DNA of 46,547 bases, taken from a virus. The notes under the pieces were generated by a model, which did not search any database, was not told the origin of the DNA, and saw only the letters and a list, made by a program, of their open reading frames with translations. Within the stretch, counting starts at the first letter, position 1; every line of letters begins with the position of its first letter. The stretch is from UHGV virus genome UHGV-0027832. One strand, written 5' to 3'. Positions 2,930 to 46,547 of the stretch are shown here, piece after piece. Both the position numbers and the translations under genes were made by a program.

Positions 2930-3437
2930 GATTACAAAACTCCCCGTGATGTCTCTCTCTTTCTTCCATTATCTTTTTGACTGCATCTTCAATGTTGGAG
3001 AATCTGCCAAGGTTAACCTCCCTGCCGTTTATATTTAATCTCGCCATCCACTTGCATCTTGATTTATCCCAGTACACACCCTTAACCCCTGACGTGTTGT
3101 TCGCCTGTAGCTTTTTGTTGTAACCATTTTGTTGATGGTCAGCCTCTCGCAGATTAACAAAACGATTATCAAGCGTATTGTTGTTTATGTGGTCTATTTC
3201 TTTTTTAGGCCAACTACCAGTCATGTAAAGCCAAGCCAGCCTGTGCGATCTATACCACTTTCTTCCAAAATGAATATAGTGATACGGCCGCTTGCTACCA
3301 ACGGTGCCGCATAATTTTATTGTTCCTGCTGGCTTCCCTGGTTTAGCCCTTCCCTGCTTGTGTGGGTTTTTCCATGTAAAAACTCCGGTGTCAGGATTGT
3401 AATCAAGGATGTGTTTTAATTCTGCTTGCGTAAGCAT
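2922..3437 (-). CDS. HNH homing endonuclease with AP2 DNA-binding domain
   Basis: HINNNTLDNRFVNLREADHQQN (HNH motif) plus GVYWDKSRCKWMARLNINGREVNLGRFSNIEDAV (AP2-like); start chosen at the MLTQ ATG with GAGGAA SD; overlaps the terL start by 8 nt. Confidence 0.8.
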   Translation of the reverse strand: MLTQAELKHILDYNPDTGVFTWKNPHKQGRAKPGKPAGTIKLCGTVGSKRPYHYIHFGRKWYRSHRLAWLYMTGSWPKKEIDHINNNTLDNRFVNLREADHQQNGYNKKLQANNTSGVKGVYWDKSRCKWMARLNINGREVNLGRFSNIEDAVKKIMEERERHHGEFCNHG

Positions 3438-3536
3438 ATATAGATTCCTCATCAGGGCATCATTGAAGTGAATGCGGCAGGCGGTGATGAGTCGCTTTTC
3501 GGGTGCCCCCTAGCCGCATTAATTATTATAAATCAG

Positions 3537-4920: not shown

Positions 4921-5199
4921 TTATTCACTTTTAGCAAGACTTTCGAATTGCTTTATCGCCATATCATAAACGTCAGGTAACTCATAATTGCGATTTAATG
5001 CGGACTCCAGTTCTGCAATGCGATTTTTCATATGATAATTCTCAACGCTCATTTCTGTGATTCTGTTGAGACATGCCATGTAGTCAGTAAGCTCAACAAC
5101 AGTCACGTAATATCCATCACCATCAGGAGGATGATGAATTGCGCTTCTTGGAACTGAATATGTTTTTGCTTTTACTGTTCCTCGTTGTTCTTCACTCAT
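4921..5199 (-). CDS. Hypothetical protein (92 aa)
   Basis: ORF with ATGA overlap to the upstream gene; coiled-coil-like C-terminus. Confidence 0.5.
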   Translation of the reverse strand: MSEEQRGTVKAKTYSVPRSAIHHPPDGDGYYVTVVELTDYMACLNRITEMSVENYHMKNRIAELESALNRNYELPDVYDMAIKQFESLAKSE

Positions 5200-5429
5200 A
5201 CCCTGACCCCCATAATTTCTTCGTAATAGCCATCTTCTTCAAACTGAATCTTTTCGATTTTGAGCGCATCTTCGTCAGTGATGTCAATCGCTTTGAATTT
5301 GCACTTTGCCAGCACTATGCATCCGGACAGGACTAGCCGCTTATTCCACCAGTGCGCTCTCCTGATTGTCTTGCTGGTATACATTCTGTTCTGCACCACC
5401 CAGAACTCGTATGTTTTGACCTTTTCCAT
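5196..5429 (-). CDS. Hypothetical protein (77 aa)
   Basis: ORF; GGTGGTGA upstream of the ATG. Confidence 0.5.
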   Translation of the reverse strand: MEKVKTYEFWVVQNRMYTSKTIRRAHWWNKRLVLSGCIVLAKCKFKAIDITDEDALKIEKIQFEEDGYYEEIMGVRV

Positions 5430-5464
5430 ATCACCACCATTGAAATAAGAGCGCTGAATCGAGG

Positions 5465-5647
5465 TCAGAACACGATAATAAGCTCATCCATTACTCTTCG
5501 CTTGCCCTCACCATTAAACACGCGCACAACGCGATTTACGCGGATAGACTCCATTGCATTACGTGCCTGTTTACTCATGAAGTTCTGCGCGCCAACGTGA
5601 CCGAGTTCAGGCTCCAGCTTCTCGCGACGATAGATAGTCTTTGCCAT
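5465..5647 (-). CDS. Hypothetical basic protein (60 aa)
   Basis: GGAGA SD 5 nt before the ATG at 5647. Confidence 0.5.
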   Translation of the reverse strand: MAKTIYRREKLEPELGHVGAQNFMSKQARNAMESIRVNRVVRVFNGEGKRRVMDELIIVF

Positions 5648-7045: not shown

Positions 7046-9375
7046 TGATTGGTTATGAAGATTACCGCAAATGTGGCTTCCCTATTATTGGAATCCATGC
7101 AATGGATATCGACCGCAATTGCACATGCGGTGATCCAGAATGCAATGCTGCAGGTAAGCATCCGGTTATGAGCAACTGGCAGCTTGGAGTTATATGGGCT
7201 GATGACCAGATTGAGAATATGGCTGAATATGGTCAGTTGCAGTCATTTGGTGTCCTTGTGAATGGTTATCTTGTCGTTGATATTGACCCACGCAACGGAG
7301 GTAATAATGGATATGAATCGCTTTGTGATGCCTTAGACGTAGAGCTTGCTGACGAAGCAGGTTTTACGGTCAAGACTGGTGGTGGTGGTCGCCACATTTA
7401 TTACAAACTTCCTGAAGGAATAAAGCTGCGCTCTCATGACAGAAGGTTTAAGGGTATTGACTTTAAATCATCTGGTTTTGTTGTTGGCTGCGGCTCATTC
7501 CATAAGTCAGGTAACTTTTATGAAGCTGAGCATGGCTCCCCTTCAGAGATAACTGAATGTCCATCTGAACTTATTGAGCTTTTGTTGCGCCCTGAGAGAA
7601 CGGAAGACGAGGTTTTCACGCTTGACAGTAAAAATTACAGCATTGCCGAAATGGAGGATATGCTCAAATACATCAAAGATGGTGATGAGTATGACCCATG
7701 GCTTCATGTAGGCATGGCTATCCACGAAGCTACAGAAGGCAATGGTTTTGAGCTTTGGGATAGGTGGTCATCGCAGTTCAGCAAGTACAGAGCTGAAGAG
7801 ATGGACGCAAAATGGCATTCCTTTGGAAAGGACGGTGTTAGCGAAAAGATAACCGAAGCAACGCTGGTTTATCTCGCGCAAGAGGGAGGGTGGGTAAGGC
7901 AAGTAACTTTTGAGGCTACTCCAGAGGAAATTGAGAAACTTGAGTCTTTCGAGCGAGAGATGGCAATGGGTGTTGGTGAATGCCCTGTAGAGTACAAAAG
8001 TGTTGATGTCCGTTATCCCCCTGGATTTGTTGGTCGCCTTACGGCGTGGATTAATAAGAACTGTGCAGAGAAGCGAGAGAATATTGCAGCACTTGCCGCA
8101 TTGCATGCCGCATCCATGATTTGCGGAGCGTCATCTGATATTTACCTTACAAAAAGGAAGGCTTTGCCAAATCTTTTTGCTGTTGGTATAGCTGGTTCAG
8201 GTTCAGGTAAGGGTGATGTCCTTGCTGCGCTACAAAAGATAATTGATTGCTCAGGATTGAGTAAGACTGTCGCCGGTAAGATACGTTCAGAGCGTGCGAT
8301 ATATGAAGGTCTTTGCGCTAACCAGATGTTTAATATCATCATGGATGAGATTGGGATAAAACTTGGGAGTGTTGTTGGTCAGAAAGTAAGCGAGTACAAC
8401 ATGGCAACCGCTGGTGCGATCATGGAGGCTTACACGTCAGAAGTTCTTTATTGTGACCAGCGGGTTACTGAGGATTTCATTAAGTCTTTCGAAAAGAGAA
8501 AGGCTATGCTGTTGATGGCTATTGAGGAAAATGAAATACAGGCAGACCCCGTTGACATTAAGTGTCAGTTTGATGATGTGATAAACAGAATTGACGGAGC
8601 TATAAGGAATCCATTTTTTTCAATCTTTGGTGTGTCTACTGATGATCAGTTTAAGCGCCTTATTACTGAAGAAAACATTAAGTCAGGTCTTATGGGTCGC
8701 GCAATGATTATGCAGGAGTTGCAGGAGATTGCTGACGAAAACGAAAACGTCAACTACTGCGATCTGCCAATGGATATGCAACTGACCATAAAAACAATAA
8801 TAAATGGCGGAACTGCTGGGCACAAAAACTGGACAGACTCAATAATCAGTCAAAAAGAAAGACGGATTATAAAAGCTACGCCTGAAGTTTCTCAGCTCGC
8901 TAAGGAGTTCTTCTCATGGATTAAAACCGTTGCAAGAAAGCATGTAGAAAACGGCACTGGTTATCACCCACTGATAAACAGATGCGCTGTAAAGGTGGCA
9001 AAGATTGCTGGCATTCTAGCGTGCGATACTGGAGTCATAACCATGGAGCACTTGAGATATGCGGTGGCATTAACAATTAAATCAACAAGCGATCTGATGA
9101 TGCGTGCTGACAGTATCGCCGGAGCGAAGTCTAAAGCTATGGAGGAAAGAATTGAAGGTATTTTCTCCATGGTTAAAGAATATGTGAAGAGAGGAATGAC
9201 CAAAACAGCAATGGTTAGAGGGGTGGCAAAAGAAGGTGGGTATAAACGTGCTGATGTCGAGAGGTGCGTAGAGAAGTTGTTATCAGATGGTATTATTTGC
9301 ATTGATGAAAATGCAAAAAGAACATCTCACAACGTAATAATTTACAAATTAACAAATGATGAGGTTGAGATATGA
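7042..9375 (+). CDS. Bifunctional primase-polymerase/helicase (prim-pol N-domain, PriCT-like middle domain, D5/P4-alpha-like NTPase)
   Basis: 777 aa. N-terminal prim-pol-like stretch FGVLVNGYLVVDIDPRNGG; PriCT-like DPWLHVGMAIHEATEGNGFELWDRWSSQFSKY; P-loop VGIAGSGSGKGD. Confidence 0.85.
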   Translation: MMIGYEDYRKCGFPIIGIHAMDIDRNCTCGDPECNAAGKHPVMSNWQLGVIWADDQIENMAEYGQLQSFGVLVNGYLVVDIDPRNGGNNGYESLCDALDVELADEAGFTVKTGGGGRHIYYKLPEGIKLRSHDRRFKGIDFKSSGFVVGCGSFHKSGNFYEAEHGSPSEITECPSELIELLLRPERTEDEVFTLDSKNYSIAEMEDMLKYIKDGDEYDPWLHVGMAIHEATEGNGFELWDRWSSQFSKYRAEEMDAKWHSFGKDGVSEKITEATLVYLAQEGGWVRQVTFEATPEEIEKLESFEREMAMGVGECPVEYKSVDVRYPPGFVGRLTAWINKNCAEKRENIAALAALHAASMICGASSDIYLTKRKALPNLFAVGIAGSGSGKGDVLAALQKIIDCSGLSKTVAGKIRSERAIYEGLCANQMFNIIMDEIGIKLGSVVGQKVSEYNMATAGAIMEAYTSEVLYCDQRVTEDFIKSFEKRKAMLLMAIEENEIQADPVDIKCQFDDVINRIDGAIRNPFFSIFGVSTDDQFKRLITEENIKSGLMGRAMIMQELQEIADENENVNYCDLPMDMQLTIKTIINGGTAGHKNWTDSIISQKERRIIKATPEVSQLAKEFFSWIKTVARKHVENGTGYHPLINRCAVKVAKIAGILACDTGVITMEHLRYAVALTIKSTSDLMMRADSIAGAKSKAMEERIEGIFSMVKEYVKRGMTKTAMVRGVAKEGGYKRADVERCVEKLLSDGIICIDENAKRTSHNVIIYKLTNDEVEI

Positions 9376-12845: not shown

Positions 12846-13034
12846 ATGAAAGAAAATAAAGAAAAACATGAAAAGTTCATGAGTTTTTCCGCGTGGAGAG
12901 AGTTTGGTTTTACAGTAATAAAAGGTGAAAAATCAAGCTTTAGAAGTCCAGATGGTATTCCATTATTCAATGAGTCTCAGGTTACTGAGATAGATGATGA
13001 TACTTTAGATCTAAATCATTGCGATTTATATTAG
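12846..13034 (+). CDS. Hypothetical protein (62 aa)
   Basis: The listed ORF starts at GTG inside the terminator; the first ATG is at 12846; weak SD. Confidence 0.3.
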   Translation: MKENKEKHEKFMSFSAWREFGFTVIKGEKSSFRSPDGIPLFNESQVTEIDDDTLDLNHCDLY

Positions 13035-13044
13035 GATTTGAATT

Positions 13045-14910
13045 ATGAAATACACGCTAAGGCCATACCAACAGGAAGCAGTTGACGCGGCTATGGCTCA
13101 CATTAGAAGCACCATCTCATCATGCGTTATCATCCTCCCGACAGGTGCAGGAAAATCCATGGTTGTAGCAGAACTTGCATCTCGTATTTATGGCATGAGC
13201 AAAAAGCGAGTTTTGTGCATTGCTCCCACCAGTGAATTGGTTGTTCAGAACAGGGCTAAATACCTACTCACAGGAGAACCAGCCAGCATGTTCAGTGCAA
13301 AGGCTGGCCCCAAAAACCTGCGTCATCCGGTGGTGTTTGGTTCACCAGTTACAATCAAGAACTCAATAGAGATGTTTGGTGATAAGTATGGTGCTGTCAT
13401 TATTGATGAGTGCGATGGAATAACACCAACCATTAAATTTATTATTAATGAAATGAAGCGTCGCAATCCAAAACTGCGTGTTATTGGAATGACTGCTACT
13501 CCTTACCGCCTTGGAACTGGATACATATACAAAGAGCACTATCTAGACGGTCCCACAGATGATGAAACTGCCATTGACCCATATTATGATAAGGTTGTTT
13601 ATGAGCTTGAGGCTAAATTCCTAATTGAAAACGGATATCTTACGCCTCCAGTAACAGAGCCTGTTTTTGACGAGTATGATACGTCTTGTCTTGAAAAGGA
13701 TAAGTTAGGTCGGTACACGACAGCTTCAGTTGAAAAAGCGATGGTTGGCAAGGGAAGGAAAACATCACGCATTGTTGAAGATATTATCCGTCGCTCTGTT
13801 AATCGGCGCGGAACGATGATTTTTGCCAGCACTAAGAAACACGCTATGGAGATAATGGAGTCACTTCCTCCCGGTTCTTATAGTTATGTTTTTGGTGATA
13901 TGCCAACAGCAGATCGCAACAAGGCAATATCAGACTTCAAGGCACAAAAAGTTAAATACATCGTCAATCAGAATATCCTTACTGTAGGGGTTGATGTTCC
14001 TCATTGTGATCATATAGCAGTAATGAGAGCCACAGAATCACCAAGACTCTACCAGCAAATAATTGGCAGGGGGACGCGTCTTTATGAAGGTAAGGAAGAC
14101 TTTCTTGTCAGCGATTACGCAGGCAACATTCAGCGCCACTTTTCTGAGACAGGGGACTTGTTCACTCCAGAAATAAAAGCAACAAGGAAAAAACCATCCG
14201 TGCCAATGGATGTCAAATGCCCGTTATGTGGCTTTATCAATGAATTTGGCGTGCGCCCAAATCCGGAAAATATGGCAGTTGATAAAGAAGGTTACTGGCT
14301 TGATTTGGCTGGTGACAGGGTGATGATTGATATTTTTGATAAATCAGGTGAAAAAATTGGAAGTAAGCCTATGCCCGCTCATTTTGGGAGAAGGTGTAAA
14401 AACTACGTTATGCTCGGGCCATTAAGGGAAATGCACAGGTGTACTTATAAGTGGTCGGTGAAAGAGTGTCCTGATTGTGGATTTGAAAATGATATAGCGG
14501 CAAGAAACTGCACATCATGCGGCGCTGAAATCATTGACCCAAACCAAAAGCTAAAAGAAGAAGCTGACAGGCTTGATTCTTCTCCTTATGCAACCAAGCA
14601 ATCAAGCGTAACCATGATGAACATCATGAAGCATTACGTTTCAAGCGGTGAAGATTTGGTACACGTAAAATTTGCTATTGAACAGAAACCATTTTTTGTT
14701 AGCAAGTTCTACAATCCAAACTCTGAGAAGGAAGGGATGAAGAAGGAGTGGGAAGAATTTTGTGAGAAGTGTTTTGGTGAACATAACATGTCAATTGATG
14801 ATGCAATAGCAAAAAGAGATGAGGCTGTCGCGCCATCAGTGATTATGTTCAGAAGAGATAAGGGTAGTAAATATTTCAACGTTAAAGGCATGTATTGGGG
14901 AGTATTATGA
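13045..14910 (+). CDS. SF2 DEAD/DEAH-box helicase with C-terminal zinc-ribbon repeats
   Basis: 621 aa. Walker A ILPTGAGKS; motif II VIIDECD; MTATPYR; helicase-C block IIGRGTR; CxxC pairs CPLCG, CPDCG and CTSCG. Confidence 0.85.
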   Translation: MKYTLRPYQQEAVDAAMAHIRSTISSCVIILPTGAGKSMVVAELASRIYGMSKKRVLCIAPTSELVVQNRAKYLLTGEPASMFSAKAGPKNLRHPVVFGSPVTIKNSIEMFGDKYGAVIIDECDGITPTIKFIINEMKRRNPKLRVIGMTATPYRLGTGYIYKEHYLDGPTDDETAIDPYYDKVVYELEAKFLIENGYLTPPVTEPVFDEYDTSCLEKDKLGRYTTASVEKAMVGKGRKTSRIVEDIIRRSVNRRGTMIFASTKKHAMEIMESLPPGSYSYVFGDMPTADRNKAISDFKAQKVKYIVNQNILTVGVDVPHCDHIAVMRATESPRLYQQIIGRGTRLYEGKEDFLVSDYAGNIQRHFSETGDLFTPEIKATRKKPSVPMDVKCPLCGFINEFGVRPNPENMAVDKEGYWLDLAGDRVMIDIFDKSGEKIGSKPMPAHFGRRCKNYVMLGPLREMHRCTYKWSVKECPDCGFENDIAARNCTSCGAEIIDPNQKLKEEADRLDSSPYATKQSSVTMMNIMKHYVSSGEDLVHVKFAIEQKPFFVSKFYNPNSEKEGMKKEWEEFCEKCFGEHNMSIDDAIAKRDEAVAPSVIMFRRDKGSKYFNVKGMYWGVL

Positions 14911-15362
14911 TTTTTCCAGAAGGCGTTAAGGTATATGGCGATTTGGATTACAGAAACAAAAAGTGCCCGTCAGAAGATGCTGAGCTGGAGACTTTTGTGA
15001 ATCAGATAAGGAAGCTATATCCTGACTTTGCAAGAGTTATGATTCATGTGCCAAATGAAGGAAAGCGTAAAGGGTATGAAGTTGAAAACCTGAAGAAAAA
15101 AGGCGCGCTAAACTTCGGGGCGTCAGACATCATTATCATCGGAAAGCAATCATTCGTTATGGAGATGAAGAGAATGGATCATACTTTATCAAAGTGGCAA
15201 CCTGGACAAATGGCATACCTCAAGGCTGCAAAAGAATTAGACTCCTTCGCATGTGTATGCCTCGGCTGGGAGGCGGCGATGATGGCATTTAACGACTGGA
15301 GAGCAATAAATTACCCAAACTATAAAAAACCATCAGAGCCATTGATATTTGATGGTTTTTAG
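14895..15362 (+). CDS. VRR-NUC domain nuclease (PD-(D/E)XK), terminated by TAG
   Basis: IHVPNEGKRKGY...ASDIIIIGKQSFVMEMKRMDHTLSKWQPGQ fits the VRR-NUC D...E.K pattern; the helicase plus VRR-NUC pairing is common in phages; stop is TAG at 15360-15362. Confidence 0.75.
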   Translation: MGSIMIFPEGVKVYGDLDYRNKKCPSEDAELETFVNQIRKLYPDFARVMIHVPNEGKRKGYEVENLKKKGALNFGASDIIIIGKQSFVMEMKRMDHTLSKWQPGQMAYLKAAKELDSFACVCLGWEAAMMAFNDWRAINYPNYKKPSEPLIFDGF

Positions 15363-15476
15363 CAGCAACGCCAGCAATCAGTCCAGCAACCGCAAAGACA
15401 ACAGCAGCCACCAAAACAACAAAGCCCACAAGGAGGCAATGAGCCTCCTATGGACTTCGACGATATTCCGTTTTAA
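15363..15476 (+). other. In-frame continuation after the VRR-NUC TAG, encoding a Gln/Pro-rich linker plus SSB C-terminal tip (QQRQQSVQQPQRQQQPPKQQSPQGGNEPPMDFDDIPF*)
   Basis: Same frame as 14895..15362 with no intervening stop other than TAG; ends in NEPPMDFDDIPF, nearly identical to the E. coli SSB tail; the only internal ATG gives the 8-codon ORF MDFDDIPF. Confidence 0.5.
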
Positions 15477-15479
15477 GCG

Positions 15480-17354
15480 TTAAAAGTTTATCGCTTTCCC
15501 AATTATTAATACATCCACGACAACTGTTGACCAGGCCGTGTTACCATCACCACGGCCTACTATAATCTGAACATCAGTGGATGTGTGGTTATAACTTGCA
15601 CAATTCCATTGATACATAGGGACGTTATTTGGATACTCTCTCGGAGTGGCAATAACCTGATATCCCTCACCATCGACACTCAACTGAAACGGTAGCGTTA
15701 TTGTGGTTGTGCCGAAGCTCTGGCCTGATGTTCTGGTTATAGTCTTGGAGTAACGCAAGAATCTTTGGTCGTTTGGTAATGAACCGGTATTACCCCCTGA
15801 TGCAAACCAGTCACTAAGTCCTGTTGGCCCGATAAGAAATCCATTGGGGTATGCTGCGGACATATACTTGGTGGTGCTATAGGTGTTCTCATTAATAAGT
15901 GCACCTGTACCCCAAACATCAGCTAAGTCTCCGGAAGCATGGTTGACACGGTTAATGGTGAAGCGGCTATTAGTACCCAAATCCCATATACGGCGACCTG
16001 TGTTGAGGAATCTGATATTGCTAAGAGTAAACTGAGAACCGTTGCTGTCGCCCTGAACCCATAATAAGTTGGTGGGAACAGGTGATTGCTGGGCTTCAAC
16101 GTTACCTGCCATGCAGTTAGACCATGTTAAGGCAACACGTCCAGATACCTTAACTACTGCATCGGAGCCTGAGTTCTCAAAACCACACTCGTCAATCGTA
16201 TACACACTGTTATAGTCCGATGACTCCAACCAGTACGCAGCCTTTTTAGTAAAATCATTAGCGCACTTGGATATAACAGAGTACCCACTCTTCATTCGCA
16301 CAGCATAATTAGAATTCTGGAAATAGGATTCTGTAATCCATGCAGATGTGCCTGCTTTTTTCCATATTCCGTAGTTTGATGAGCTAAACATTTGGCAACC
16401 ATGAACGCGAAACACCCATGAACCGTTATCGCAAATATCTGCTTCAGTGAATCCAGTAAACTTACAGTCATTAATATTTGTATTCTGTGTCCTGCCCAGG
16501 TAAATTCCGTAGGAGCCACCAGCGGTTGAGGTGAACTGCAATCCTTCTATATATACAGCCTGTGGTTGATTCACCACAGCGTTGTCCGGGTTTGTTGATG
16601 ACACGACAATAGCAGCGTTAACATCCATAACAATTCCGCTCTCATCAACAGGCAATCCGGAAGTCTCCGTTGAAGAGTTTAGATTTATTACGGTTCGTCC
16701 GCCATAGCAAAGAATACGGCTGTTACGAAATCCTTTTTGCTTATATATCAGAGGTTTATTTATGTTGTATGTGACTGCTTTGTCGAATAATACCGCTTTA
16801 CCATTTAGCGTGGCATAGTCTAGCATTTCCTGTAATGCGGATGATGCATCACTCCCATCTTCTGGGGTTCCAAATTGTGCTGGAGTTACAAACCACAGCA
16901 TGTCATAAACGGAACCGATACCAGCAGGAGCCTTTATTAATTTTGATCCTATATCTTGATTGTTTAATTCTGAACGCAAGGCGGCATCACCAACACTAAC
17001 CCATGCTCCTTGTTTAACCTCACCAGTGCCATCTGGAGTTGAGCCCGCTGGAACGATTTTTGGGAAATCCCCATCCCAACGGTAATATTCTCCGTTCGCT
17101 TCATAGCGCAGTGTCTGATTGGGAAGCGTCAATGTTGCTCCATCTTCGAAGCTGTCCATTGTGATGTAGCCATATTTGCGGATAGCTTCTTCTGCTGTGT
17201 ACTGGAATCCAGCAATAGTCCATCGGCGCACGCCAAAGCGATCTGTATAGTAATGCACGTCAGATGTCACTACCTCGTCAATCTTCCCGGCATTAAACTT
17301 GAGGTCGCGCGGGTCTTCTGACGGAATTGGTTTATTGGTTGGTGTGGTAGCCAT
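15480..17354 (-). CDS. Tail fiber/tailspike protein with a probable right-handed beta-helix (pectate-lyase-like) domain; putative receptor-binding or depolymerase protein
   Basis: 624 aa, last gene of the tail operon. The N-terminal ~120 aa look like an adaptor domain; the remainder is rich in N/G/S/T repeats typical of beta-helix tailspikes. AAGGAG SD upstream. Confidence 0.65.
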   Translation of the reverse strand: MATTPTNKPIPSEDPRDLKFNAGKIDEVVTSDVHYYTDRFGVRRWTIAGFQYTAEEAIRKYGYITMDSFEDGATLTLPNQTLRYEANGEYYRWDGDFPKIVPAGSTPDGTGEVKQGAWVSVGDAALRSELNNQDIGSKLIKAPAGIGSVYDMLWFVTPAQFGTPEDGSDASSALQEMLDYATLNGKAVLFDKAVTYNINKPLIYKQKGFRNSRILCYGGRTVINLNSSTETSGLPVDESGIVMDVNAAIVVSSTNPDNAVVNQPQAVYIEGLQFTSTAGGSYGIYLGRTQNTNINDCKFTGFTEADICDNGSWVFRVHGCQMFSSSNYGIWKKAGTSAWITESYFQNSNYAVRMKSGYSVISKCANDFTKKAAYWLESSDYNSVYTIDECGFENSGSDAVVKVSGRVALTWSNCMAGNVEAQQSPVPTNLLWVQGDSNGSQFTLSNIRFLNTGRRIWDLGTNSRFTINRVNHASGDLADVWGTGALINENTYSTTKYMSAAYPNGFLIGPTGLSDWFASGGNTGSLPNDQRFLRYSKTITRTSGQSFGTTTITLPFQLSVDGEGYQVIATPREYPNNVPMYQWNCASYNHTSTDVQIIVGRGDGNTAWSTVVVDVLIIGKAINF

Positions 17355-17393: not shown

Positions 17394-21195
<3,802 letters not shown>

Positions 21196-21247: not shown

Positions 21248-21330
21248 AAGTGCAGCTAGGAGGCGTCCGAAAAGCGATTGGTTATCGCCTGCTGCATCAC
21301 TCCAAACCACCTTTAACCGAGGGTTCAATC

Positions 21331-22209
21331 ATGAGCAAATCAACCACTGAAGAATTTATTATAAAAGCCAGATCGATTCATGGTAATAAATATCTTTACG
21401 ATGCTGTTTCTTATATAAAAAGTTCGATAAAGGTAAAGATAACATGCCGTAAGCATGGGTTATTTGAGCAGACTCCAAACTCTCATTTGAATGGAGCTGG
21501 ATGCCCTTCTTGCTCTGGAAATAAGAAGAAAACAACGCGTGAATTTGTGGCTGATGCGATTGCAAAGCATGGTGAATCTTATGATTATTCTAAAGTTGAA
21601 TATAGAGGTGGTCATAAGAAAGTAAAAATAATATGCAAAGTACATAATTTTGAGTTTTCTCAGGAGGCCAACAGTCACCTTAATGGGTGTGGTTGCCCTG
21701 TTTGCGCAAGGGAGAAAATTACAGCATCTGTAACTAAGGGGTTCAATAAGTTCAAGAAAGATGCCATTATAATTCATGGGAATAAGTACCATTATGATTG
21801 CTTGTCATACGTTAATGTGACAACAAAAATGAGAATAAAATGCCCAGAACATGGGTGGTTTGCAAAGACGCCAGACAGGCACATTCAAGGGCAAGGTTGC
21901 CCTCATTGCTCCAAGGGAGGTTTCAAGCTGAAAGAAAAGGCATTTGTTTACTTCTTGTTCTCAGGAAACGAAATTAAAGTTGGGATTACTAACAATCTTA
22001 GGCGTCGAGTTTGTCAGTTAAAGAAAAACACACCATTTGATTTTCACGTCATATCAAAAATAAAGACAATAGGTGGTGATGCTCTTGCTATTGAAAAGTA
22101 CTATCACAAGAAATACGAAAGTGCAGGACTGACAGGTTTTGATGGCGCAACTGAGTGGCTTAAGTATTCACCTGAATTAATGGATGAGATAATGAACAAA
22201 GCCCCGTGA
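21331..22209 (+). CDS. Homing-endonuclease-like protein: three tandem ~45-aa Cys/His repeats plus a C-terminal T5orf172/GIY-YIG-like domain
   Basis: Repeats HGNKY.YD..SY......I.C..HG.F......H..G.GCP.C occur three times; C-terminus AFVYFLFSGNEIKVGITNNLRRRVCQLKK matches the T5orf172/GIY-YIG signature. Encoded on the opposite strand inside the tail operon, with its own promoter and terminator. Confidence 0.65.
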   Translation: MSKSTTEEFIIKARSIHGNKYLYDAVSYIKSSIKVKITCRKHGLFEQTPNSHLNGAGCPSCSGNKKKTTREFVADAIAKHGESYDYSKVEYRGGHKKVKIICKVHNFEFSQEANSHLNGCGCPVCAREKITASVTKGFNKFKKDAIIIHGNKYHYDCLSYVNVTTKMRIKCPEHGWFAKTPDRHIQGQGCPHCSKGGFKLKEKAFVYFLFSGNEIKVGITNNLRRRVCQLKKNTPFDFHVISKIKTIGGDALAIEKYYHKKYESAGLTGFDGATEWLKYSPELMDEIMNKAP

Positions 22210-27532: not shown

Positions 27533-27609
27533 GGACGCGTAGCTTAATTGGTTAAAGCAACCGACTCATAATCGGCTGATTGAAGGTTCAAATCCGTCCG
27601 TGTCCACCA
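27533..27609 (+). tRNA. tRNA with anticodon CAU (tRNA-Met, or tRNA-Ile2 if lysidine-modified)
   Basis: Cloverleaf: acceptor GGACGCG/CGTGTCC (one G-U pair); D-arm GCTT/AAGC; anticodon stem CCGA/TCGG with loop CTCATAA; T-arm GAAGG-TTCAAAT-CCGTC (one mismatch); discriminator A; encoded CCA. Confidence 0.8.
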
Positions 27610-30100: not shown

Positions 30101-30406
30101 ATGCAAACAAAAAATCCATTTCTAATGATATGCGAAAAAAAAGTAGATGCTGAAATCATGCACATAAAAAGCGTCATGATCATACTGCTAATGAAAAGGT
30201 TAAATACTATGGCTTCCAAGAGAAAGGATATGGCTAAGATCCTTGGATGCTCAGAAGGAGAAATGAGTAGGATTGCGAATGGGTATTTATCAAGCATTTC
30301 ACTTGAGAAGATTATTAAGCACTTAGCTACTATAGATTGCTTTTCATCCTCTAAATTTTTCGATGGAACCGTTTCAATTATTATTCGTGAGGATAAATCA
30401 AAATGA
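30101..30406 (+). CDS. HTH (XRE-like) DNA-binding protein
   Basis: AAAGGAGAGCGCA SD before the ATG at 30101; MAKILGCSEGEMSRIANGYLSSISLEKII resembles an XRE-type helix-turn-helix. Confidence 0.5.
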   Translation: MQTKNPFLMICEKKVDAEIMHIKSVMIILLMKRLNTMASKRKDMAKILGCSEGEMSRIANGYLSSISLEKIIKHLATIDCFSSSKFFDGTVSIIIREDKSK

Positions 30407-30876
30407 TATGGAATGAGGTATTTAAGTATAAGGATGGTCATATTTTTTGGAATATTAAGAGGCGGAAAGTTAAGTTTGGATCAGAGGCTGGTTCGTGTAA
30501 GTCTCATGGATATAAAGTGGTTCGAGTTAACGGCAGGCAGTTCTTAGTGCATCGCATCATCTGGGAAATGCATAACGGCGCAATACCAGAAGGAATGGAG
30601 ATTGATCATATCAACCATGTTCGTGATGATAACAGAATTGAGAATTTGCGTATTGTTTCTCACGCAGACAACATGAAAAATCAAAAAATGAACATTAATA
30701 ATAAATCTGGCCATCATGGAGTTAGCCTATGCAGATCTAGAGGGAAGTGGCTGGCAAAAATAACAGCGAATGGCTCTCACATTTTTCTTGGTCACTTTGA
30801 CACAATCGAAGAAGCAATTGACGCAAGGATGAATGCGATAACGCAGCTAAAGTTTCACGAAAATCATGGGATCTAG
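30403..30876 (+). CDS. HNH homing endonuclease with AP2 domain (second copy, divergent sequence)
   Basis: HNH motif EIDHINHVRDDNRIENLRIVSHADNMKNQ; AP2-like HGVSLCRSRGKWLAKITANGSHIFLGHFDTIEEAIDAR. Confidence 0.8.
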   Translation: MIWNEVFKYKDGHIFWNIKRRKVKFGSEAGSCKSHGYKVVRVNGRQFLVHRIIWEMHNGAIPEGMEIDHINHVRDDNRIENLRIVSHADNMKNQKMNINNKSGHHGVSLCRSRGKWLAKITANGSHIFLGHFDTIEEAIDARMNAITQLKFHENHGI

Positions 30877-33916: not shown

Positions 33917-34984
33917 CACCGGAGTTTGTGTTCCGTAGCCGTTGAACACTTTGGACTTACCGGAGAAATCCTTGCGCACCTGTAAACCCATAGCAGACCA
34001 CACGAGGAAGTTGAAGTTAGCGTGCGGCGTGGTACGCGGCTCTGCATAGGTGGATACCGGCTGAGCAACACGCGGACGGATGTACATGTCGTTGCGAACG
34101 TAGCCAACAAAATGGTTACCAGTCAGCAGGAAGTTGGTGCCAATCTTGCCGATACGACCATTGCCGAACTGCGTGATGTACTGCTCAACCGTACCGCCTT
34201 TGAATCCTGCCGCATCAGAATACGGACGCATGAAACTGCGACGCACTGCCGGGGAAACCCACAGAGTAACCTGCTCAAATACGTTCTGCGCATCAAGAAT
34301 AGCCTGGAAATCCTGATTGAAGAAGGTCACGATTTGGTCAGGCGTTGCGGTTTGCAGGTCGATATTCAGGCCACCGGAAGCATTCAGGTTAACCTGAACA
34401 GTGTTCGGGTGGTTGGTGATACCGTAACCAGTGTAAACGCCGTTCACGTTCAGAGTCTGGTCGCCAGTAAGTAGATACTGCGCCATGTCGGAACGCAGGT
34501 TAAAGGTGACGTTAGCCTGATCGTCCAGCAGAGGGTCAAAACCCTCAGACTGCATACCCAGCAGCTCGCGCCATTCGCGGCCGTATCCAGTCTTGAAGAT
34601 TGGAATCACATCGCCAGTGTAATCGTAGCGAGTTTTATCCAAATCTTCCGGCTCCTGACCAGACAGTGTGCGGACGACCTTACCAGCATCGGAAGCGATG
34701 CGGCTGATTGCCACAGTCTTGCCGATATTGATGTTTGCCGCGATACCCATCAGGTCAGCCATCATATCCTGACCAGCTTCGTTACGGAAAACGCGGGTGG
34801 TGACGTTGTCCACGTCGCGCCAGTAATCCTTCGTTACCAGTGCGGTAGCGTTCACGCCGTAGGTTTTCGCCAGTTCAGCTTCTGCATTGCAGAACACCTT
34901 ACGGTCGATAGTCAGATGTTTCCACTGGGCAGCCACCACTGCGGAGTTGGCTACCAAGTCTTTGGTAAAAATAATCTTTTCCAT
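33914..34984 (-). CDS. Major capsid protein
   Basis: 356 aa ORF following the protease/scaffold and decoration genes and followed by a strong terminator; size and position are typical of an HK97-fold major capsid protein. Confidence 0.65.
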   Translation of the reverse strand: MEKIIFTKDLVANSAVVAAQWKHLTIDRKVFCNAEAELAKTYGVNATALVTKDYWRDVDNVTTRVFRNEAGQDMMADLMGIAANINIGKTVAISRIASDAGKVVRTLSGQEPEDLDKTRYDYTGDVIPIFKTGYGREWRELLGMQSEGFDPLLDDQANVTFNLRSDMAQYLLTGDQTLNVNGVYTGYGITNHPNTVQVNLNASGGLNIDLQTATPDQIVTFFNQDFQAILDAQNVFEQVTLWVSPAVRRSFMRPYSDAAGFKGGTVEQYITQFGNGRIGKIGTNFLLTGNHFVGYVRNDMYIRPRVAQPVSTYAEPRTTPHANFNFLVWSAMGLQVRKDFSGKSKVFNGYGTQTPV

Positions 34985-34986
34985 TA

Positions 34987-36866
<1,880 letters not shown>

Positions 36867-39740: not shown

Positions 39741-40258
39741 TTAAAGGCAAACTGGTTTATTCTGGAGTTGGCGGCCCGGCTCGCATATACAAATCGCAAA
39801 GCATCGAGCAGTCATATGATGATATTCAATTTGAATCAATGACACTGAAAAAAGTTGATGCTGGTAGATGCGCGAGAATAGAGGGGGTTGATAAGTATGG
39901 GTATAAATTTTTCGCTGAATACCCATCATGGTCGTTCGTTTTTGAAAATGACGAGCAAGACCTAAACGATTGCATTGGCGCACCGGAAGCAGACACTACA
40001 GAGCAACTCATCAACGAACGCGGTAGCCGATACGGTAAATTCAAAGACGGTGCTGAAATCATGCAGGAACTGAAAGAAGTGATGCGCGGGGTGGATGGGT
40101 GGCACAACCTGACGCCAAGCCAACGCGAGGCGCTAGACATGATTCAGCACAAGATTGGGCGCATACTGAATGGAGACCCGACTTATGATGACAGCTGGAA
40201 AGATATTGCTGGCTATGCGACGTTAATTGTTAATGAACTGAACGGAGAGATTAAATAA
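39737..40258 (+). CDS. Hypothetical protein with a possible C-terminal MazG-like all-alpha NTP-pyrophosphohydrolase domain
   Basis: GAGAGGA SD; C-terminal EIMQELKEVMRGVDGWHNLTPSQREALDMIQHKIGRILNGDPTYDDSWKDIAGYATLIVNEL has the spacing of acidic/aromatic residues seen in MazG/HisE-like proteins (low confidence). Confidence 0.4.
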   Translation: MIKGKLVYSGVGGPARIYKSQSIEQSYDDIQFESMTLKKVDAGRCARIEGVDKYGYKFFAEYPSWSFVFENDEQDLNDCIGAPEADTTEQLINERGSRYGKFKDGAEIMQELKEVMRGVDGWHNLTPSQREALDMIQHKIGRILNGDPTYDDSWKDIAGYATLIVNELNGEIK

Positions 40259-40470
40259 TGGCACCACCAAAACATGACGAGCTTGTGTATCTCCATATTG
40301 AGCAAGTTAATGGCAGAAGCATGATTGTCGATCAGGACGGACGCAGGGTTGCTGGTGTGGTTAACTTCAATCTCGACGCATCTTTTGATGGAGTATCTAC
40401 AATCACTGCAACAATCGAATCGGCAACATATGGCGAAAACAGCAAAATCCATATCACTACAGGAGCATAA
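40258..40470 (+). CDS. Hypothetical protein (70 aa)
   Basis: TAATGG overlap with the upstream gene. Confidence 0.45.
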   Translation: MAPPKHDELVYLHIEQVNGRSMIVDQDGRRVAGVVNFNLDASFDGVSTITATIESATYGENSKIHITTGA

Positions 40471-40471
40471 A

Positions 40472-40780
40472 ATGTCATTCTGCGACATTACCATCGCGCA
40501 ACGAAACGCGAACTACACCAATATTGCTGACACGTCCGCACAACTGGTATCACTCAATAGCGACGGCAGCGCAGTGCTGAAAATCGGCACCGAAACAGCG
40601 CAATTCATCGTGCAAAATCTGTCGCAGGCGAACGCAAAGCAGGTGCTGATTAGTACTGGTAGCGTGCTGTTTCTGGCGGGTAATTACAATGCACCGAACC
40701 TTGAGTGTTCACTGGTACGCATCGTTGAAACTGCGGTCGAGGAATCTGTTGATGAGTCAACAACATTGCCAGCAGAGTGA
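40472..40780 (+). CDS. Hypothetical protein (102 aa)
   Basis: AGGAGCA SD before the ATG at 40472. Confidence 0.45.
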   Translation: MSFCDITIAQRNANYTNIADTSAQLVSLNSDGSAVLKIGTETAQFIVQNLSQANAKQVLISTGSVLFLAGNYNAPNLECSLVRIVETAVEESVDESTTLPAE

Positions 40781-40901
40781 GCCGTCCGCCTACATCGTTA
40801 CGGATAACCGAGGTAAACGCTATCTCGTGTTTTCCGGTAGCGTTGAGCATCAGAATGCAATTATGTTTGGGTATGAAACTAAACCACTGTATGGGGAATA
40901 A
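40752..40901 (+). CDS. Hypothetical protein (49 aa)
   Basis: GAGGAA SD; overlaps the previous gene by 29 nt. Confidence 0.3.
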   Translation: MSQQHCQQSEPSAYIVTDNRGKRYLVFSGSVEHQNAIMFGYETKPLYGE

Positions 40902-40903
40902 AT

Positions 40904-41065
40904 ATGGATGCTTATGATGAATTAATGGCTGCTCTTGGTTACTATTTTGGCGATGGTGAGATGCTGGCCAGTGAAGAATCCATCAGGGAGATTATTGGTC
41001 AGGAGCATGACCCAATACAAACTATTGCGGAGGCTCTTGATGAATATCGTGAGCGGATAAAGTAA
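40904..41065 (+). CDS. Hypothetical protein (53 aa)
   Basis: ATG 2 nt after the previous stop; followed by a terminator. Confidence 0.35.
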   Translation: MDAYDELMAALGYYFGDGEMLASEESIREIIGQEHDPIQTIAEALDEYRERIK

Positions 41066-41067
41066 AA

Positions 41068-41096
41068 CAAAGCCCCATTACGGGGCTTTTTTATTG
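41068..41096. terminator. Bidirectional rho-independent terminator
   Basis: AAAGCCCCATTACGGGGCTTT hairpin followed by TTTATT. Confidence 0.7.
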
Positions 41097-41569
41097 CGTA
41101 ACGAATTGTACTGTGCCTCACATGCTAATCCTGCCTCTCTTGCCCTGTCAGCATAATCTGCCAGTTGTCGATTTCTTTCGACAGATGCTGCGAGCACGTC
41201 GGCAAGCAAAACTCCGGTTTCTGCGGTTGGATCGCCAATGGACTCAGTGGCGGAATATCCGACGAGCTGCTTGCGGATGTTTGCGAGTTGTTGCTGCAAC
41301 CTGCCAGACTTAGCAGCAGCATTGACAGCGTCATTGCGCGCAGCGTCAATCCTTTGCTGTGCATCGGCCTGAATCTTTTGCAGTTCTGCATTGCGTCGTT
41401 GCTCCTCTTGTTCGTCTGCGGTCTTCTGGTCTGCGATGGCCTTTGCATATCCGGCTGCGTATCGCTGGTCGCCGTACTCTATAACCTCCCCGCGAATCAA
41501 CAGCGCGCCAGCTGCAGCAATTATAATAATTGCCAGCGGTCGCCAGTATCTACTGAGTACTGTTTCCAT
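41078..41569 (-). CDS. Rz: Rz-like inner-membrane spanin (i-spanin)
   Basis: N-terminal TM helix (PLAIIIIAAAGALLI), then a long Ala/Gln/Arg-rich coiled coil; sits downstream of the holin and endolysin genes. Confidence 0.7.
   Translation of the reverse strand: METVLSRYWRPLAIIIIAAAGALLIRGEVIEYGDQRYAAGYAKAIADQKTADEQEEQRRNAELQKIQADAQQRIDAARNDAVNAAAKSGRLQQQLANIRKQLVGYSATESIGDPTAETGVLLADVLAASVERNRQLADYADRAREAGLACEAQYNSLRNKKAP
41125..41334 (-). CDS. Rz1: Rz1-like outer-membrane lipoprotein spanin (o-spanin), embedded in the +1 frame of Rz
   Basis: MTLSMLLLSLAGCSN carries an LAGC lipobox; proline-rich mature part; lies entirely inside the Rz gene. Confidence 0.65.
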   Translation of the reverse strand: MTLSMLLLSLAGCSNNSQTSASSSSDIPPLSPLAIQPQKPEFCLPTCSQHLSKEIDNWQIMLTGQERQD

Positions 41570-41691
41570 TTCCCGAAACTCCAGCCAGCCATAAGTGAGG
41601 ATGGGCTATGCAGTTGGTTATAAAGTGCAATCCCTTGGTGGTCTGGTATGCAAAGTAAAATCCACTCCGCATCTTCATCAGTTTATGTATT

Positions 41692-41931
41692 TCACGCATT
41701 CTTGCTTTCATCTTTTAACCTCTTATTCGCCTTATTCATCGCATGCATCTTGCCGAGGATGCCAATCAGCATGATTGAGTAGCTAACACCTTTAACTACG
41801 ATTGGCGGTAGCGCCGCTTTCAGGTCATCAGGCATCATTACCCACACATGCATCATTGCGTCAGGCCATAGCTGCAACAGTGAGCAGAATGAAATCCACG
41901 CGCCGAGCAGCCAGTTGCTTAGTTTTTTCAT
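41692..41931 (-). CDS. Putative holin (79 aa, two TM segments, charged C-terminus)
   Basis: TM segments LLGAWISFCSLLQLW and VSYSIMLIGILG; C-terminal KANKRLKDESKNA; ATGA overlap with the endolysin stop; GGAG SD. Confidence 0.55.
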   Translation of the reverse strand: MKKLSNWLLGAWISFCSLLQLWPDAMMHVWVMMPDDLKAALPPIVVKGVSYSIMLIGILGKMHAMNKANKRLKDESKNA

Positions 41932-42392
41932 GCCACAACTCCGCCAGCATCCTTGTATACCTGAATCAGCTTATCCAGTTTCTGCTCATGCTGGCCATAG
42001 CCAGCGCCCGGCAGTGAAGCCCAGCGTGAGCGGCATTTATGGATGGCATCAGCAATGCGACCAGCCTCAATATCCGCAGTGGCTTTGCATTCACGGATTA
42101 ACTGCATTGCAATAGCGTCCTGCGATGCGGGGGAGAAGTCCGGCAAGCGTAATTGCTTTTTGTATGCGTCATAAAACTTAGCCAGCACCTGATAGCGTCC
42201 GGCTGCAGTGGATTTTATTCCCAACTTAGGCAGACTAATCAGCTTGCGTGGGTGGTCTGCGTAATCGGTAAACAGCGAGCCACCAACAATCACATCATAA
42301 CCATGATTATTGGTTTTCTGTCGCCCGTTATCAGTGCCTTCGCTGTACGCCAGCATATCCAGAAACGCCTTCATGTTTTTGCTAATAACCAT
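41928..42392 (-). CDS. Endolysin, lambda R-like lytic transglycosylase
   Basis: MVISKNMKAFLDMLAYSEGTDNGRQKTNNHGYDVIVGGSLFTDYADHPRKL... is collinear with lambda R (MVEINNQRKAFLDMLAWSEGTDNGRQKTRNHGYDVIVGG...); start at 42392 with AAGAGGT SD. Confidence 0.85.
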   Translation of the reverse strand: MVISKNMKAFLDMLAYSEGTDNGRQKTNNHGYDVIVGGSLFTDYADHPRKLISLPKLGIKSTAAGRYQVLAKFYDAYKKQLRLPDFSPASQDAIAMQLIRECKATADIEAGRIADAIHKCRSRWASLPGAGYGQHEQKLDKLIQVYKDAGGVVA

Positions 42393-42660
42393 ACCAGTAA
42401 ACCTCTTTTTCAGCCTTGCGTTTTGCTTTATCTCCAGTCTTCTCCCCCCACACAATGAAATGCGCAACAGCACATGAGAAGCAGCGAAGATTGTGTTTCT
42501 TCAAAAGCGTTGATTTGCGGAAAGTGTCAATGCCGATGTCGGTGGCAAGACTTGTCAGTGCGTCAAACTGATTCCGCGTTGTCTCAGTGGTGATGTAAGG
42601 AGATATATCTACGGCATCAGTGACTCCAAGTGTCTCCGCGCCGCGTTGCGATAGTTTCAT
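42382..42660 (-). CDS. Hypothetical protein (92 aa) translationally coupled to the endolysin gene
   Basis: GGAGG SD 4 nt before the ATG at 42660; no TM segment; overlaps the endolysin start by 11 nt. Confidence 0.5.
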   Translation of the reverse strand: MKLSQRGAETLGVTDAVDISPYITTETTRNQFDALTSLATDIGIDTFRKSTLLKKHNLRCFSCAVAHFIVWGEKTGDKAKRKAEKEVYWYGY

Positions 42661-42694
42661 TCTGCCTCCTGTTCAAATGATGATTAATTCTATC

Positions 42695-42723
42695 ACAACA
42701 GGTATTGACGTAGATTGAGTGGT
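42695..42723 (+). promoter_or_regulatory. Putative promoter TTGACG-N17-CATAGT containing the TAGATT/GGTGGTG motif
   Basis: TTGACGTAGATTGAGTGGTGGTGCATAGT; lies between the divergent genes at 42660(-) and 42765(+). Confidence 0.3.
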
Positions 42724-42764
42724 GGTGCATAGTATCTGCATCAATAACGAGTGAGGTGATGAGA

Positions 42765-42986
42765 ATGAAAATAGAGCTTAACAAAGAAAGTAATATGCTA
42801 AGTATTACTGGGCAGGGAGAGATGGTATTCACAAGGATCAAAAATGAAAATGAAGCTGCAATAACAATGATATGTGACGGGGCGAAATCTTCAGTTCAAG
42901 ATATGTATCTGGTCAATTTAAAAGGGAAAACAAGGGTTGGCAGATTTCTCTCTGCGCTGAAGCATGTGTGGATTCTTGCCAGATAA
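42765..42986 (+). CDS. Hypothetical protein (73 aa)
   Basis: GAGGTGA SD 6 nt before the ATG at 42765. Confidence 0.45.
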   Translation: MKIELNKESNMLSITGQGEMVFTRIKNENEAAITMICDGAKSSVQDMYLVNLKGKTRVGRFLSALKHVWILAR

Positions 42987-42996
42987 AGGTGTGATT

Positions 42997-43140
42997 ATGG
43001 TGATGGTCAAATTCAAAGAAAACGGACGCTGCGGAGTGTTCAACCTTGAGCAAATCAAAATTCGTCCGTGCGGAAAGGTGGTTGCGCCATTTGGTCTGGT
43101 GCAGATGCGTGAGATCGAGATTGTTGAATATATTAAGTGA
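42997..43140 (+). CDS. Hypothetical protein (47 aa)
   Basis: AAAGGTG SD; sequence MVMVKFKENGRCGVFNLEQIKIRPCGKVVAPFGLVQMREIEIVEYIK. Confidence 0.35.
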   Translation: MVMVKFKENGRCGVFNLEQIKIRPCGKVVAPFGLVQMREIEIVEYIK

Positions 43141-43148
43141 GGTTGGCG

Positions 43149-43283
43149 ATGGAAGAGTTTAAAGGCACGCAAGGAAAATGGGAAGTTGTTGCTGGTGAAG
43201 ATAACGCGCCAGATGTTATCTCGGATATTGGTGTTGAGATTGCATTCACCCCAACATACAACGGCGACAAAACTGAGCAATAG
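43149..43283 (+). CDS. N-terminal segment (44 aa) of a TAG-interrupted ORF
   Basis: GAGG SD; sequence MEEFKGTQGKWEVVAGEDNAPDVISDIGVEIAFTPTYNGDKTEQ, then TAG at 43281-43283. Confidence 0.4.
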   Translation: MEEFKGTQGKWEVVAGEDNAPDVISDIGVEIAFTPTYNGDKTEQ

Positions 43284-43446
43284 CATAACGCAAAGTTAAT
43301 CGCAGCATCTCCTAACCTGCTCGCAGCACTCCAGCAACTCATGGAAATCTACGACGACCACTCAGGCAAAGTCTGGACAACATCAAGCAAGCGTCGCGCT
43401 CTGGATAATGCGCGCGCGGCGGTTAATAAAGCATTGGGAGAATAAT
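43284..43446 (+). other. In-frame continuation (54 codons) after the TAG: HNAKLIAASPNLLAALQQLMEIYDDHSGKVWTTSSKRRALDNARAAVNKALGE*
   Basis: Same frame as 43149..43283, with no SD and no start codon of its own near the 5' end. The NAKLIAA.P.LLAAL-type segment looks like the C-terminal half of a small phage protein family (assigned from memory). Confidence 0.4.
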
Positions 43447-43447
43447 C

Positions 43448-43672
43448 ATGTGGCTTGTATTTAATATTGGATGTATCGAATGCGGTGTTTCATCAAATGT
43501 TGTTGCTATTTATCCAACTAAACAAGAGGCTAATGCGGTGGCTGAAAAACTGAATGAGGTTCACGAATGGCGAGAAGGCGGTCAAAACTCGTATGAGGTA
43601 TTTAAGCTGGGTGAGCTGTACGAGGTTGAGGGTGAATATAAAGAAATACTTTCCGATGGAGAAACAAAATGA
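43448..43672 (+). CDS. Hypothetical protein (74 aa)
   Basis: GGGAGAA SD; ORF. Confidence 0.5.
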   Translation: MWLVFNIGCIECGVSSNVVAIYPTKQEANAVAEKLNEVHEWREGGQNSYEVFKLGELYEVEGEYKEILSDGETK

Positions 43673-44259
43673 AACTTATCGACTTGTTAGTTCAAGAATT
43701 GCCTAAGCGTGGCGGGTGGCCTGAAGGTGCTGTCGAGTGCCAGAGATTTGTTGATGAGGCAACCATTGATTTTTATGATGAAAATGGAAATTGGGATGAT
43801 GACTGTTCACTTACTTACGGCTCTATAGCGGTGGAGCTCGTCAGAAAGCAGGCATACCCTTGCGAGAGCGAGCAAGTAACTCGCGACCAATACGAATCCG
43901 CACTCTCCGCATCGCAAAAATCAGCATGGAACGGTGAAGGCCTGCCGCCCGCTGGTGTTGAGTGTGAGGCTAAATACAGAGAATCAGATATTGCCGAGTG
44001 GTTTTTGTTCCGCTGTGTTGGTGTTGATTGCGGCATGGCATTTGGTTGGGCAGGGAAAGAGGCTGTCACTCTTGGTAAGGGAAGTTATGAATTTCGACCG
44101 CTACACACTGAAGCAGAGAGGAAGCGAGAAGTGGCAATTGAGGCAATTCTATCTGATATGAGAACCATACCATGTGACCTAAGCCTGCGTGATGGGGTTG
44201 CTGTTATTTACGACGCCATCGCAGCAGGCAAGATTCCCGGCGTGAAACTGGAGGGTTGA
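43669..44259 (+). CDS. Hypothetical protein (196 aa)
   Basis: ORF with ATGA overlap. Confidence 0.5.
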   Translation: MKLIDLLVQELPKRGGWPEGAVECQRFVDEATIDFYDENGNWDDDCSLTYGSIAVELVRKQAYPCESEQVTRDQYESALSASQKSAWNGEGLPPAGVECEAKYRESDIAEWFLFRCVGVDCGMAFGWAGKEAVTLGKGSYEFRPLHTEAERKREVAIEAILSDMRTIPCDLSLRDGVAVIYDAIAAGKIPGVKLEG

Positions 44260-44261
44260 TA

Positions 44262-44390
44262 TGCGATGGTTGCTTGCATTTGTTCTTGGCGTCTGCTGGT
44301 TAATTTTATCTCTAATCACTGATAGTGATGCCAATATGATAATCGCCAATATCTGGATGGCAGCAAGTTTCATCTTGGCATCAAAATAAT
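44262..44390 (+). CDS. Hypothetical 42-aa membrane peptide
   Basis: GGAGGG SD; sequence MRWLLAFVLGVCWLILSLITDSDANMIIANIWMAASFILASK; followed by a terminator. Confidence 0.35.
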
Positions 44391-44400
44391 ATAAAGCCAC

Positions 44401-46546
<2,146 letters not shown>

Positions 46547-46547
46547 T

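Follow-up and report, generated by a model that had tools for sequence, protein, structure and literature searches.

Change of a tryptophan codon to UAG by a G to A transition is the textbook route to an amber codon. Classical amber (TGG to TAG) mutants and phage pseudogenes have one such substitution, lose a conserved domain through it and have relatives with a sense codon at the site. The classical mutants were selected in the laboratory, in essential genes and with suppressor hosts. In phage Q-beta the A1 protein is made by UGA readthrough, the stop being followed by an open in-frame extension. Some gut phages are reported to read TAG as an amino acid, and in these an in-frame TAG is found inside a conserved gene.

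The locus considered here is part of a virus genome of 46,547 nucleotides (UHGV-0027832; the whole of this stretch is termed the window), and it shares a feature with each of these systems: a TAG stands where close relatives have TGG, the frame stays open beyond it, and the gene so interrupted is conserved. However, unlike in the classical mutants, the gene hit is small and accessory, and the phage is a wild one, assembled from a metagenome. In contrast to Q-beta, the stop is not conserved, no RNA structure accompanies it and the ‘extension’ specifies the conserved protein core rather than something added to it. TAG-reassigned phages differ as well, since the window has one such TAG among some 85 genes, lacks a tRNA with anticodon CUA, and uses TAG to end six other genes at the homologous position. 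It is highly likely that a nonsense mutation of the ordinary kind recently abolished the function of this small accessory gene in a phage lineage from the wild, leaving a pseudogene. A preliminary description of this DNA had offered propagation on an amber-suppressing host, UAG readthrough and recent pseudogenisation without choosing among them. The last is the one that the evidence favours, and the other two are left without favouring evidence.

The features of the locus are as follows.

43139..43142, + strand: Shine-Dalgarno-like GAGG, 6 nt 5′ of the ATG at 43149 (direct reading)
43149..43283, + strand: 5′ fragment of a PF27050/phrog_1273 gene, 44 codons plus premature TAG, specifying the N-terminal beta-strand part alone (profile E=9.5e-14)
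43281..43283, + strand: premature amber TAG, opposite TGG (Trp45) of the closest relatives, putatively by G>A at 43282 (DNA alignment, codon table)
43284..43445, + strand: severed 3′ part, 53 codons plus TAA, specifying the conserved two-helix C-terminal part, presumed untranslated (profile E=8.7e-34)
43341..43343, + strand: in-frame ATG, codon 65, without a Shine-Dalgarno sequence; unlikely as a restart site
43448..43672, + strand: next gene, 74 aa, with its own Shine-Dalgarno sequence GGGAGA at 43436-43441

Direct reading of the sequence gives 44 sense codons from the ATG at 43149 to the TAG at 43281-43283, after which the same frame continues for 53 sense codons to TAA at 43443-43445. The GAGG 5′ of the start overlaps the TGA of the preceding gene (42964-43140). 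The protein of the upstream ORF begins MEEFKGTQGKWEV and ends DKTEQ (all 44 codons give MEEFKGTQGKWEVVAGEDNAPDVISDIGVEIAFTPTYNGDKTEQ), and that of the downstream frame begins HNAKLIAASPNLLAALQQLMEIYDD and ends KALGE (all 53 codons give HNAKLIAASPNLLAALQQLMEIYDDHSGKVWTTSSKRRALDNARAAVNKALGE). The split of one ORF by an in-frame TAG into a 44-aa and a distal half, as first described, is real, both halves matching a single family of about 98 aa. Some details need correction. The ‘54 codons’ of the distal half are 53 sense codons and the stop, and the end given for it, 43446, is one base beyond the TAA. It had also been said to have neither a Shine-Dalgarno sequence nor a start codon of its own. 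The former is borne out by the sequence 5′ of the ATG at 43341 (tcgcagcactccagcaactc), in which there is no Shine-Dalgarno sequence, but that ATG is itself in frame. The 34-aa product which would start there is absent from the protein collection on exact look-up, and the gene caller left 43284-43445 without annotation. In intact relatives the next gene starts 2 nt past the stop of the gene that is interrupted here. No second copy of the gene was found in the window by family profile search.

On comparison of sequences the interrupted frame is not a chance open frame, because both halves match the family profile and a tblastn alignment crosses the stop. The profile scores the upstream ORF and the downstream frame separately, at the E-values given above, and the two are therefore parts of one gene. 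In the tblastn alignment the uninterrupted 98-aa proteins of phages Akira and INT55 extend across the TAG at 89.8% identity, and the 98-aa sequence with the stop read through matches phrog_1273 with E=6.4e-21 over residues 1-98. With this read-through sequence as query 271 proteins were found, and all 120 that are listed carry PF27050 (‘Phage_P22_Y8K6’). The search for uninterrupted homologs, which had been proposed at the outset, thus has a clear outcome: each of the 120 homologous clusters listed is a single ORF, of 87-126 aa. In INPHARED 135 records match, and in 110 of them a single place accounts for at least 80% of the query. Homologs that are naturally two genes with independent starts had been named as an observation that would speak against an interrupted gene. 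None of the 120 listed is split, and the distal half here is without a ribosome-binding site. (A 541-aa protein, P0122, in the 90%-identity cluster of the 44-aa fragment, P0121, is GroEL, and its presence there is a database clustering artefact.)

Position in the genome is also conserved. The annotated relatives Akira, ZK22 and INT55 have one CDS at the same place, 3′ of the lysis cassette and two small ORFs, and in these phages as in metagenome contigs the PF27050 gene lies between the endolysin genes and a Mu F-like head-morphogenesis gene. The window gene shares with the family this position and a profile match over its whole length. It departs from the family in that the uninterrupted ORF of about 90-125 aa, specifying strands and two helices, is cut by TAG at codon 45, and in having atypical residues at 56 (N) and 65 (M). 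Since the frame is interrupted at codon 45 and the listed homologs are intact, the locus is a pseudogene and not a functional family member.

What the intact protein does is not revealed by its matches. Searches of a local Pfam copy (which is without the PF27050 model), of NCBIfam and of PDB, by sequence and by fold, gave no functional assignment, and in a viral structure library the matches are only to uncharacterised phage proteins of about 100 aa. The literature on PF27050 and on this phage group adds nothing on the interrupted gene. An AlphaFold2 model of an intact homolog (P0007; mean pLDDT 84.6, pTM 0.71) has three beta-strands within residues 11-33, followed by helices at 42-69 and 79-95. 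In the family alignment 26 of the 29 nearly invariant columns are at residues 55-98, and the N-terminal part is variable and, in some members (P0114, P0115), exchanged. The TAG site is at the junction of the variable N-terminal and conserved C-terminal parts, which may be coincidence. Position 45 itself is variable, with W in 39, H in 28, D in 15 and E in 7 of the 120 homologs.

The nature of the lesion can be deduced from the relatives. DNA alignment places the TAG opposite TGG in Akira and ZK22, a codon table gives TGG also for INT55 and Skate, and the same codon is present in three real IMG/VR relatives and three relatives from metagenome collections (sequences with TAG that matched in the metagenome scan are unrelated). 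As the relatives checked carry TGG, the lesion appears to be a single G to A transition at 43282, turning Trp45 from TGG to TAG. With the stop in place the protein lacks its two predicted helices, as well as 26 of the 29 nearly invariant residues, and the 44-aa fragment is therefore, on the model of the intact protein, very unlikely to be functional.

The downstream part has kept its coding character. No further stop, frameshift or indel is present in its 53 codons. Its pN/pS is 0.11-0.17 against relatives at a synonymous divergence of about 0.23-0.29, the corresponding values for intact pairs being 0.06-0.08. The lack of decay and the low pN/pS imply that this half has been mostly under purifying selection and that the stop is recent. 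The lesion would then be young relative to the ~25-30% synonymous divergence, its age being judged only from the lack of decay. Two replacements at highly conserved positions are unique to the window: D/E56N, with N in none of the 120 homologs, and L65M, where Leu is present in 117 of the 120 and Met in one. They fit, weakly, a short period of relaxed constraint, the numbers being too small for proof.

The course of events that we propose is then simple. A G>A change at 43282 would have turned Trp45 (TGG) into amber (TAG). The gene so affected is small, accessory and probably dispensable, and in this Skatevirus/Akiravirus/Cedarrivervirus-like siphophage it belongs to the variable cluster of early genes that separates the lysis cassette from the head-morphogenesis gene. 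Ribosomes would stop at the TAG, releasing a fragment of 44 residues without the helices, and the 162-nt remainder would go untranslated save for background readthrough. The phage presumably tolerates the loss, the gene being non-essential. Its size, its location and the existence of a second disrupted allele are what suggest that it is probably dispensable. That second allele is in a 95-aa protein of the family (P0039, with 17 member sequences), in which loss of 1 nt after about residue 72 has put the same gene out of frame (…EIYDDQYGKAGQHQASAALLIMRMRRLIRR). By sequence comparison it looks to be an independent inactivation in a different lineage, so that natural disruption of the gene recurs, and it fits a gene that can be lost. 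Biologically the case is minor, another wild phage losing a small accessory gene by point mutation, and the recurrence of disruption, in the window and in P0039, hints weakly at a gene that the phage can do without or that is at times a cost. For annotation it has some value: the locus is best labelled as a PF27050/phrog_1273 pseudogene, and the genome should not be flagged as alternative-code or as an amber-suppressor-dependent stock.

The source of the DNA is relevant here. The window derives from a siphophage whose nucleotide sequence is about 90% identical to those of Salmonella, Escherichia and Shigella phages (Skatevirus, Akiravirus, Cedarrivervirus). It is absent from the INPHARED isolate collection, in which the best matches to it have about 90% identity. 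The portal gene, the product of which has 470 aa in relatives, spans the window ends (45332-46547 and 1-197, − strand), and since it crosses them, the window is a complete, circularly permuted genome of ~46.5 kb. Positions 40149-46283 (6,135 bp) match the ENA metagenome contig ERZ27287221:k141_338226 with 100% identity. (At 46,666 bp this contig is 119 bp longer than the window, presumably by terminal overlap.) On exact look-up the 44-aa product is among the gene calls of 6 contigs, of NCBI and ENA origin, and the exact neighbouring 74-aa protein is found on the same 6, so far as can be judged from these matches all the known contigs of the lineage thus carrying the TAG. No near-identical genome with TGG is on record, the nearest intact relatives being ~9-15% diverged in nucleotide sequence. 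Given the 100% identity to an ENA metagenome contig and the occurrence of the product on 6 contigs, the window is from a metagenome-assembled wild phage and not from a laboratory amber stock. An isolate grown on a supE/supF strain, as expected of a laboratory amber mutant, is not what this sequence represents, and because it is a metagenome assembly the genotype of an isolation host, suggested earlier as a check, cannot be looked up.

Use of TAG elsewhere in the genome is unexceptional. Stop codons in the 85 homolog-supported ORFs are TAA in 40, TGA in 38 and TAG in 7. The catalogue of TAG-terminated genes that the preliminary description had called for thus comprises 7 of 85 ORFs, and the six other than the interrupted gene all end where their homologs end. 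The single tRNA gene in the window (27533-27609; ARAGORN and Rfam) has, by ARAGORN, anticodon CAT (Met), in agreement with the earlier statement that the phage tRNA has CAU and not CUA, and neither program finds a phage-encoded suppressor tRNA with anticodon CUA. None of three signs of TAG reassignment, which are many in-frame TAGs, a CUA tRNA and avoidance of TAG as terminator, is present. When all annotated CDSs of Akira, Sf11 and INT55 were compared to the window by tblastn, the only premature TAG found was that at 43281; the search was confined to annotated CDSs, as inclusion of all the relatives’ ORFs swamped it with non-coding frames. A TAA at 19812 that came up in the alignment of the minor tail protein merely makes its C-terminus ~7 aa shorter. 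If ORF pairs linked through a TAG are simply counted, there are 27, the largest of which (34022-34990, 5139-5600) are non-coding and antisense to real genes. Pairs joined by TAA and TGA are even commoner, at 50 and 59, and such pairs are therefore mostly due to chance.

The premise that two genes of this genome are interrupted by amber codons probably fails, as the scan of the CDSs of three relatives finds one premature stop. Our best guess is that the other case in mind was the TAG at 15360, the sole plausible candidate among the TAG junctions. A nuclease-like gene (14895-15362, + strand), homologous to Sf11 gp11, ends there with TAG 15360-15362, and an in-frame 37-codon acidic tail of SSB type follows (QQRQQSVQQPQRQQQPPKQQSPQGGNEPPMDFDDIPF, ending …NEPPMDFDDIPF). 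The Sf11 homolog ends at the same residue (…LIFDGF) with TAA as its stop, and the layout is the same (L004, 8128-8697). The DNA of the tail is 92.8% identical to the 3′ end of the real SSB gene of Akira (L003, 8404-8500), and in Akira and INT55 the genuine SSB gene adjoins the tailspike gene at the equivalent position. The TAG at 15360 is thereby discarded as a second amber interruption: the gene ends there normally, Sf11 having TAA, and what follows is the fossil of an SSB 3′ end. Since Sf11 ends with TAA and the tail matches the 3′ end of Akira SSB, the tail is an SSB remnant, in frame with the preceding gene by chance, and not the result of an amber mutation; it is a recombination scar at the boundary of a swapped replication module. 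Two further points concern this remnant. The Sf11 ‘gp12’ annotated at 8573-8755 reads it in another frame and looks spurious, and comparison of the window with Sf11 over 14895-15478 reveals more synonymous than non-synonymous changes in the tail together with an in-frame 3-nt indel. The ORF at 12846-13037 (TAG 13035-13037) seemed to share its frame with the helicase, but this too was dismissed, as the frame of the ORF meets TGA 15 codons on and the helicase, from ATG 13046, is read in a different one. The genome has one amber lesion, and a single lesion needs no special explanation.

Ways in which the full-length protein might still be made deserve consideration. A suppressor tRNA of the host (supE or supF type) would insert Gln or Tyr at position 45 and keep the gene functional. 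Variability at position 45 in the family means that such a residue is probably tolerated, the downstream half is intact and conserved, and the TAG allele is on every known contig of the lineage. However, a recent lesion explains the intact downstream half equally well, the source is a metagenome assembly and not a stock from a laboratory suppressor strain, the phage itself encodes no suppressor tRNA, and TAG serves six other genes as terminator, at the point where their homologs end too. The base after the TAG is C, a poor context for suppressor tRNAs in E. coli, and maintenance of function by suppression is improbable to a high degree. The same C enters into the possibility of programmed or tolerated readthrough, by which the 44-aa fragment would be the main product and a full-length form a minor one, since UAG-C is a relatively weak terminator in E. 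coli and the frame is open past the stop. Were the signal programmed, other family members should share it, whereas no relative checked has a stop at codon 45, all having TGG or another sense codon there. Nor was a stimulatory RNA structure or motif detected: the 101 nt from 43260 to 43360 fold no better than shuffled sequence (z=−0.02), and Rfam has no recoding element at the stop. Readthrough of this sort is barely credible here.

Other explanations accept that the protein is absent, or deny that the codon is real. If the phage in nature has TGG, the A at 43282 would be a consensus error or minority variant, and indeed just one base is concerned and the source is a short-read metagenome assembly (contig k141_...). 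Substitution errors are, however, rare in high-coverage Illumina consensus. The same 44-aa product is predicted in 6 NCBI and ENA contigs, not necessarily from independent samples, and other lineage-specific changes in the gene suggest a real, distinct allele, all of which makes a sequencing or assembly artefact very unlikely. Fixation of the stop by selection rather than drift, loss of the PF27050 protein being advantageous, for instance if a host defence senses it, would accord with the presence of the TAG allele on every known contig of the lineage, with the second, independent disruption in another lineage (the P0039 frameshift, 17 members), and with location in a variable accessory cluster, a related contig carrying a Tad2-like anti-defence gene ~2.4 kb upstream, past the lysis genes. 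But a role of the protein as a defence trigger would be conjectural, and two disrupted alleles stand against hundreds that are intact, a pattern that drift in a dispensable gene gives as well; such a selected knockout is most improbable. It is quite unlikely, too, that the disruptions in the window and P0039 lineages together represent an adaptive knockout by which both escape a host defence or, in a weaker variant suggested by the tolerance of position 45 for many residues, that partial function persists through natural UAG readthrough or suppression. Recent nonsense pseudogenisation is the reading adopted here.

Several other features of the genome and its relatives may be recorded. In a related phage contig (L021; Logan ERR14372543) the Tad2-like (anti-Thoeris) gene, at 319-573, is ~2.4 kb upstream of the PF27050 gene, beyond the lysis cassette, and because of it the region near the cassette may hold counter-defence genes. 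The lysozyme region of the window (41928-42660, − strand) consists of two overlapping ORFs in different frames, an arrangement also annotated in Akira, Sf11, INT55 and ZK22.

42382-42660, − strand: lysozyme ORF 1, 92 aa, Phage_lysozyme, ends with TAG
41928-42392, − strand: lysozyme ORF 2, ~154 aa

Three endonuclease-type genes are present (21250-22209, +; 30403-30876, +; 2922-3452, −), likely to be mobile homing-type insertions. One, an insertion among the tail genes on the strand opposite to theirs, is an ORF of 319 aa with 30% identity to the DUF559 endonuclease of Akira, and the remaining two are HNH endonucleases. Directly upstream of the HNH endonuclease gene at 2922-3452, which adjoins that for the terminase large subunit, is a match to the Rfam int-alpA RNA (RF02996; 3457-3520, − strand; 42.6 bits, the gathering score being 35.8). 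An 828-aa tail protein ORF and a 624-aa tailspike ORF (17394-19880 and 15480-17354, − strand) are in the same frame with only the TGA of the former between them, and the Sf11 annotation treats the two as separate genes. The match of the tailspike to Sf11 extends over ~136 aa only, which suggests that its receptor-binding part has been swapped.
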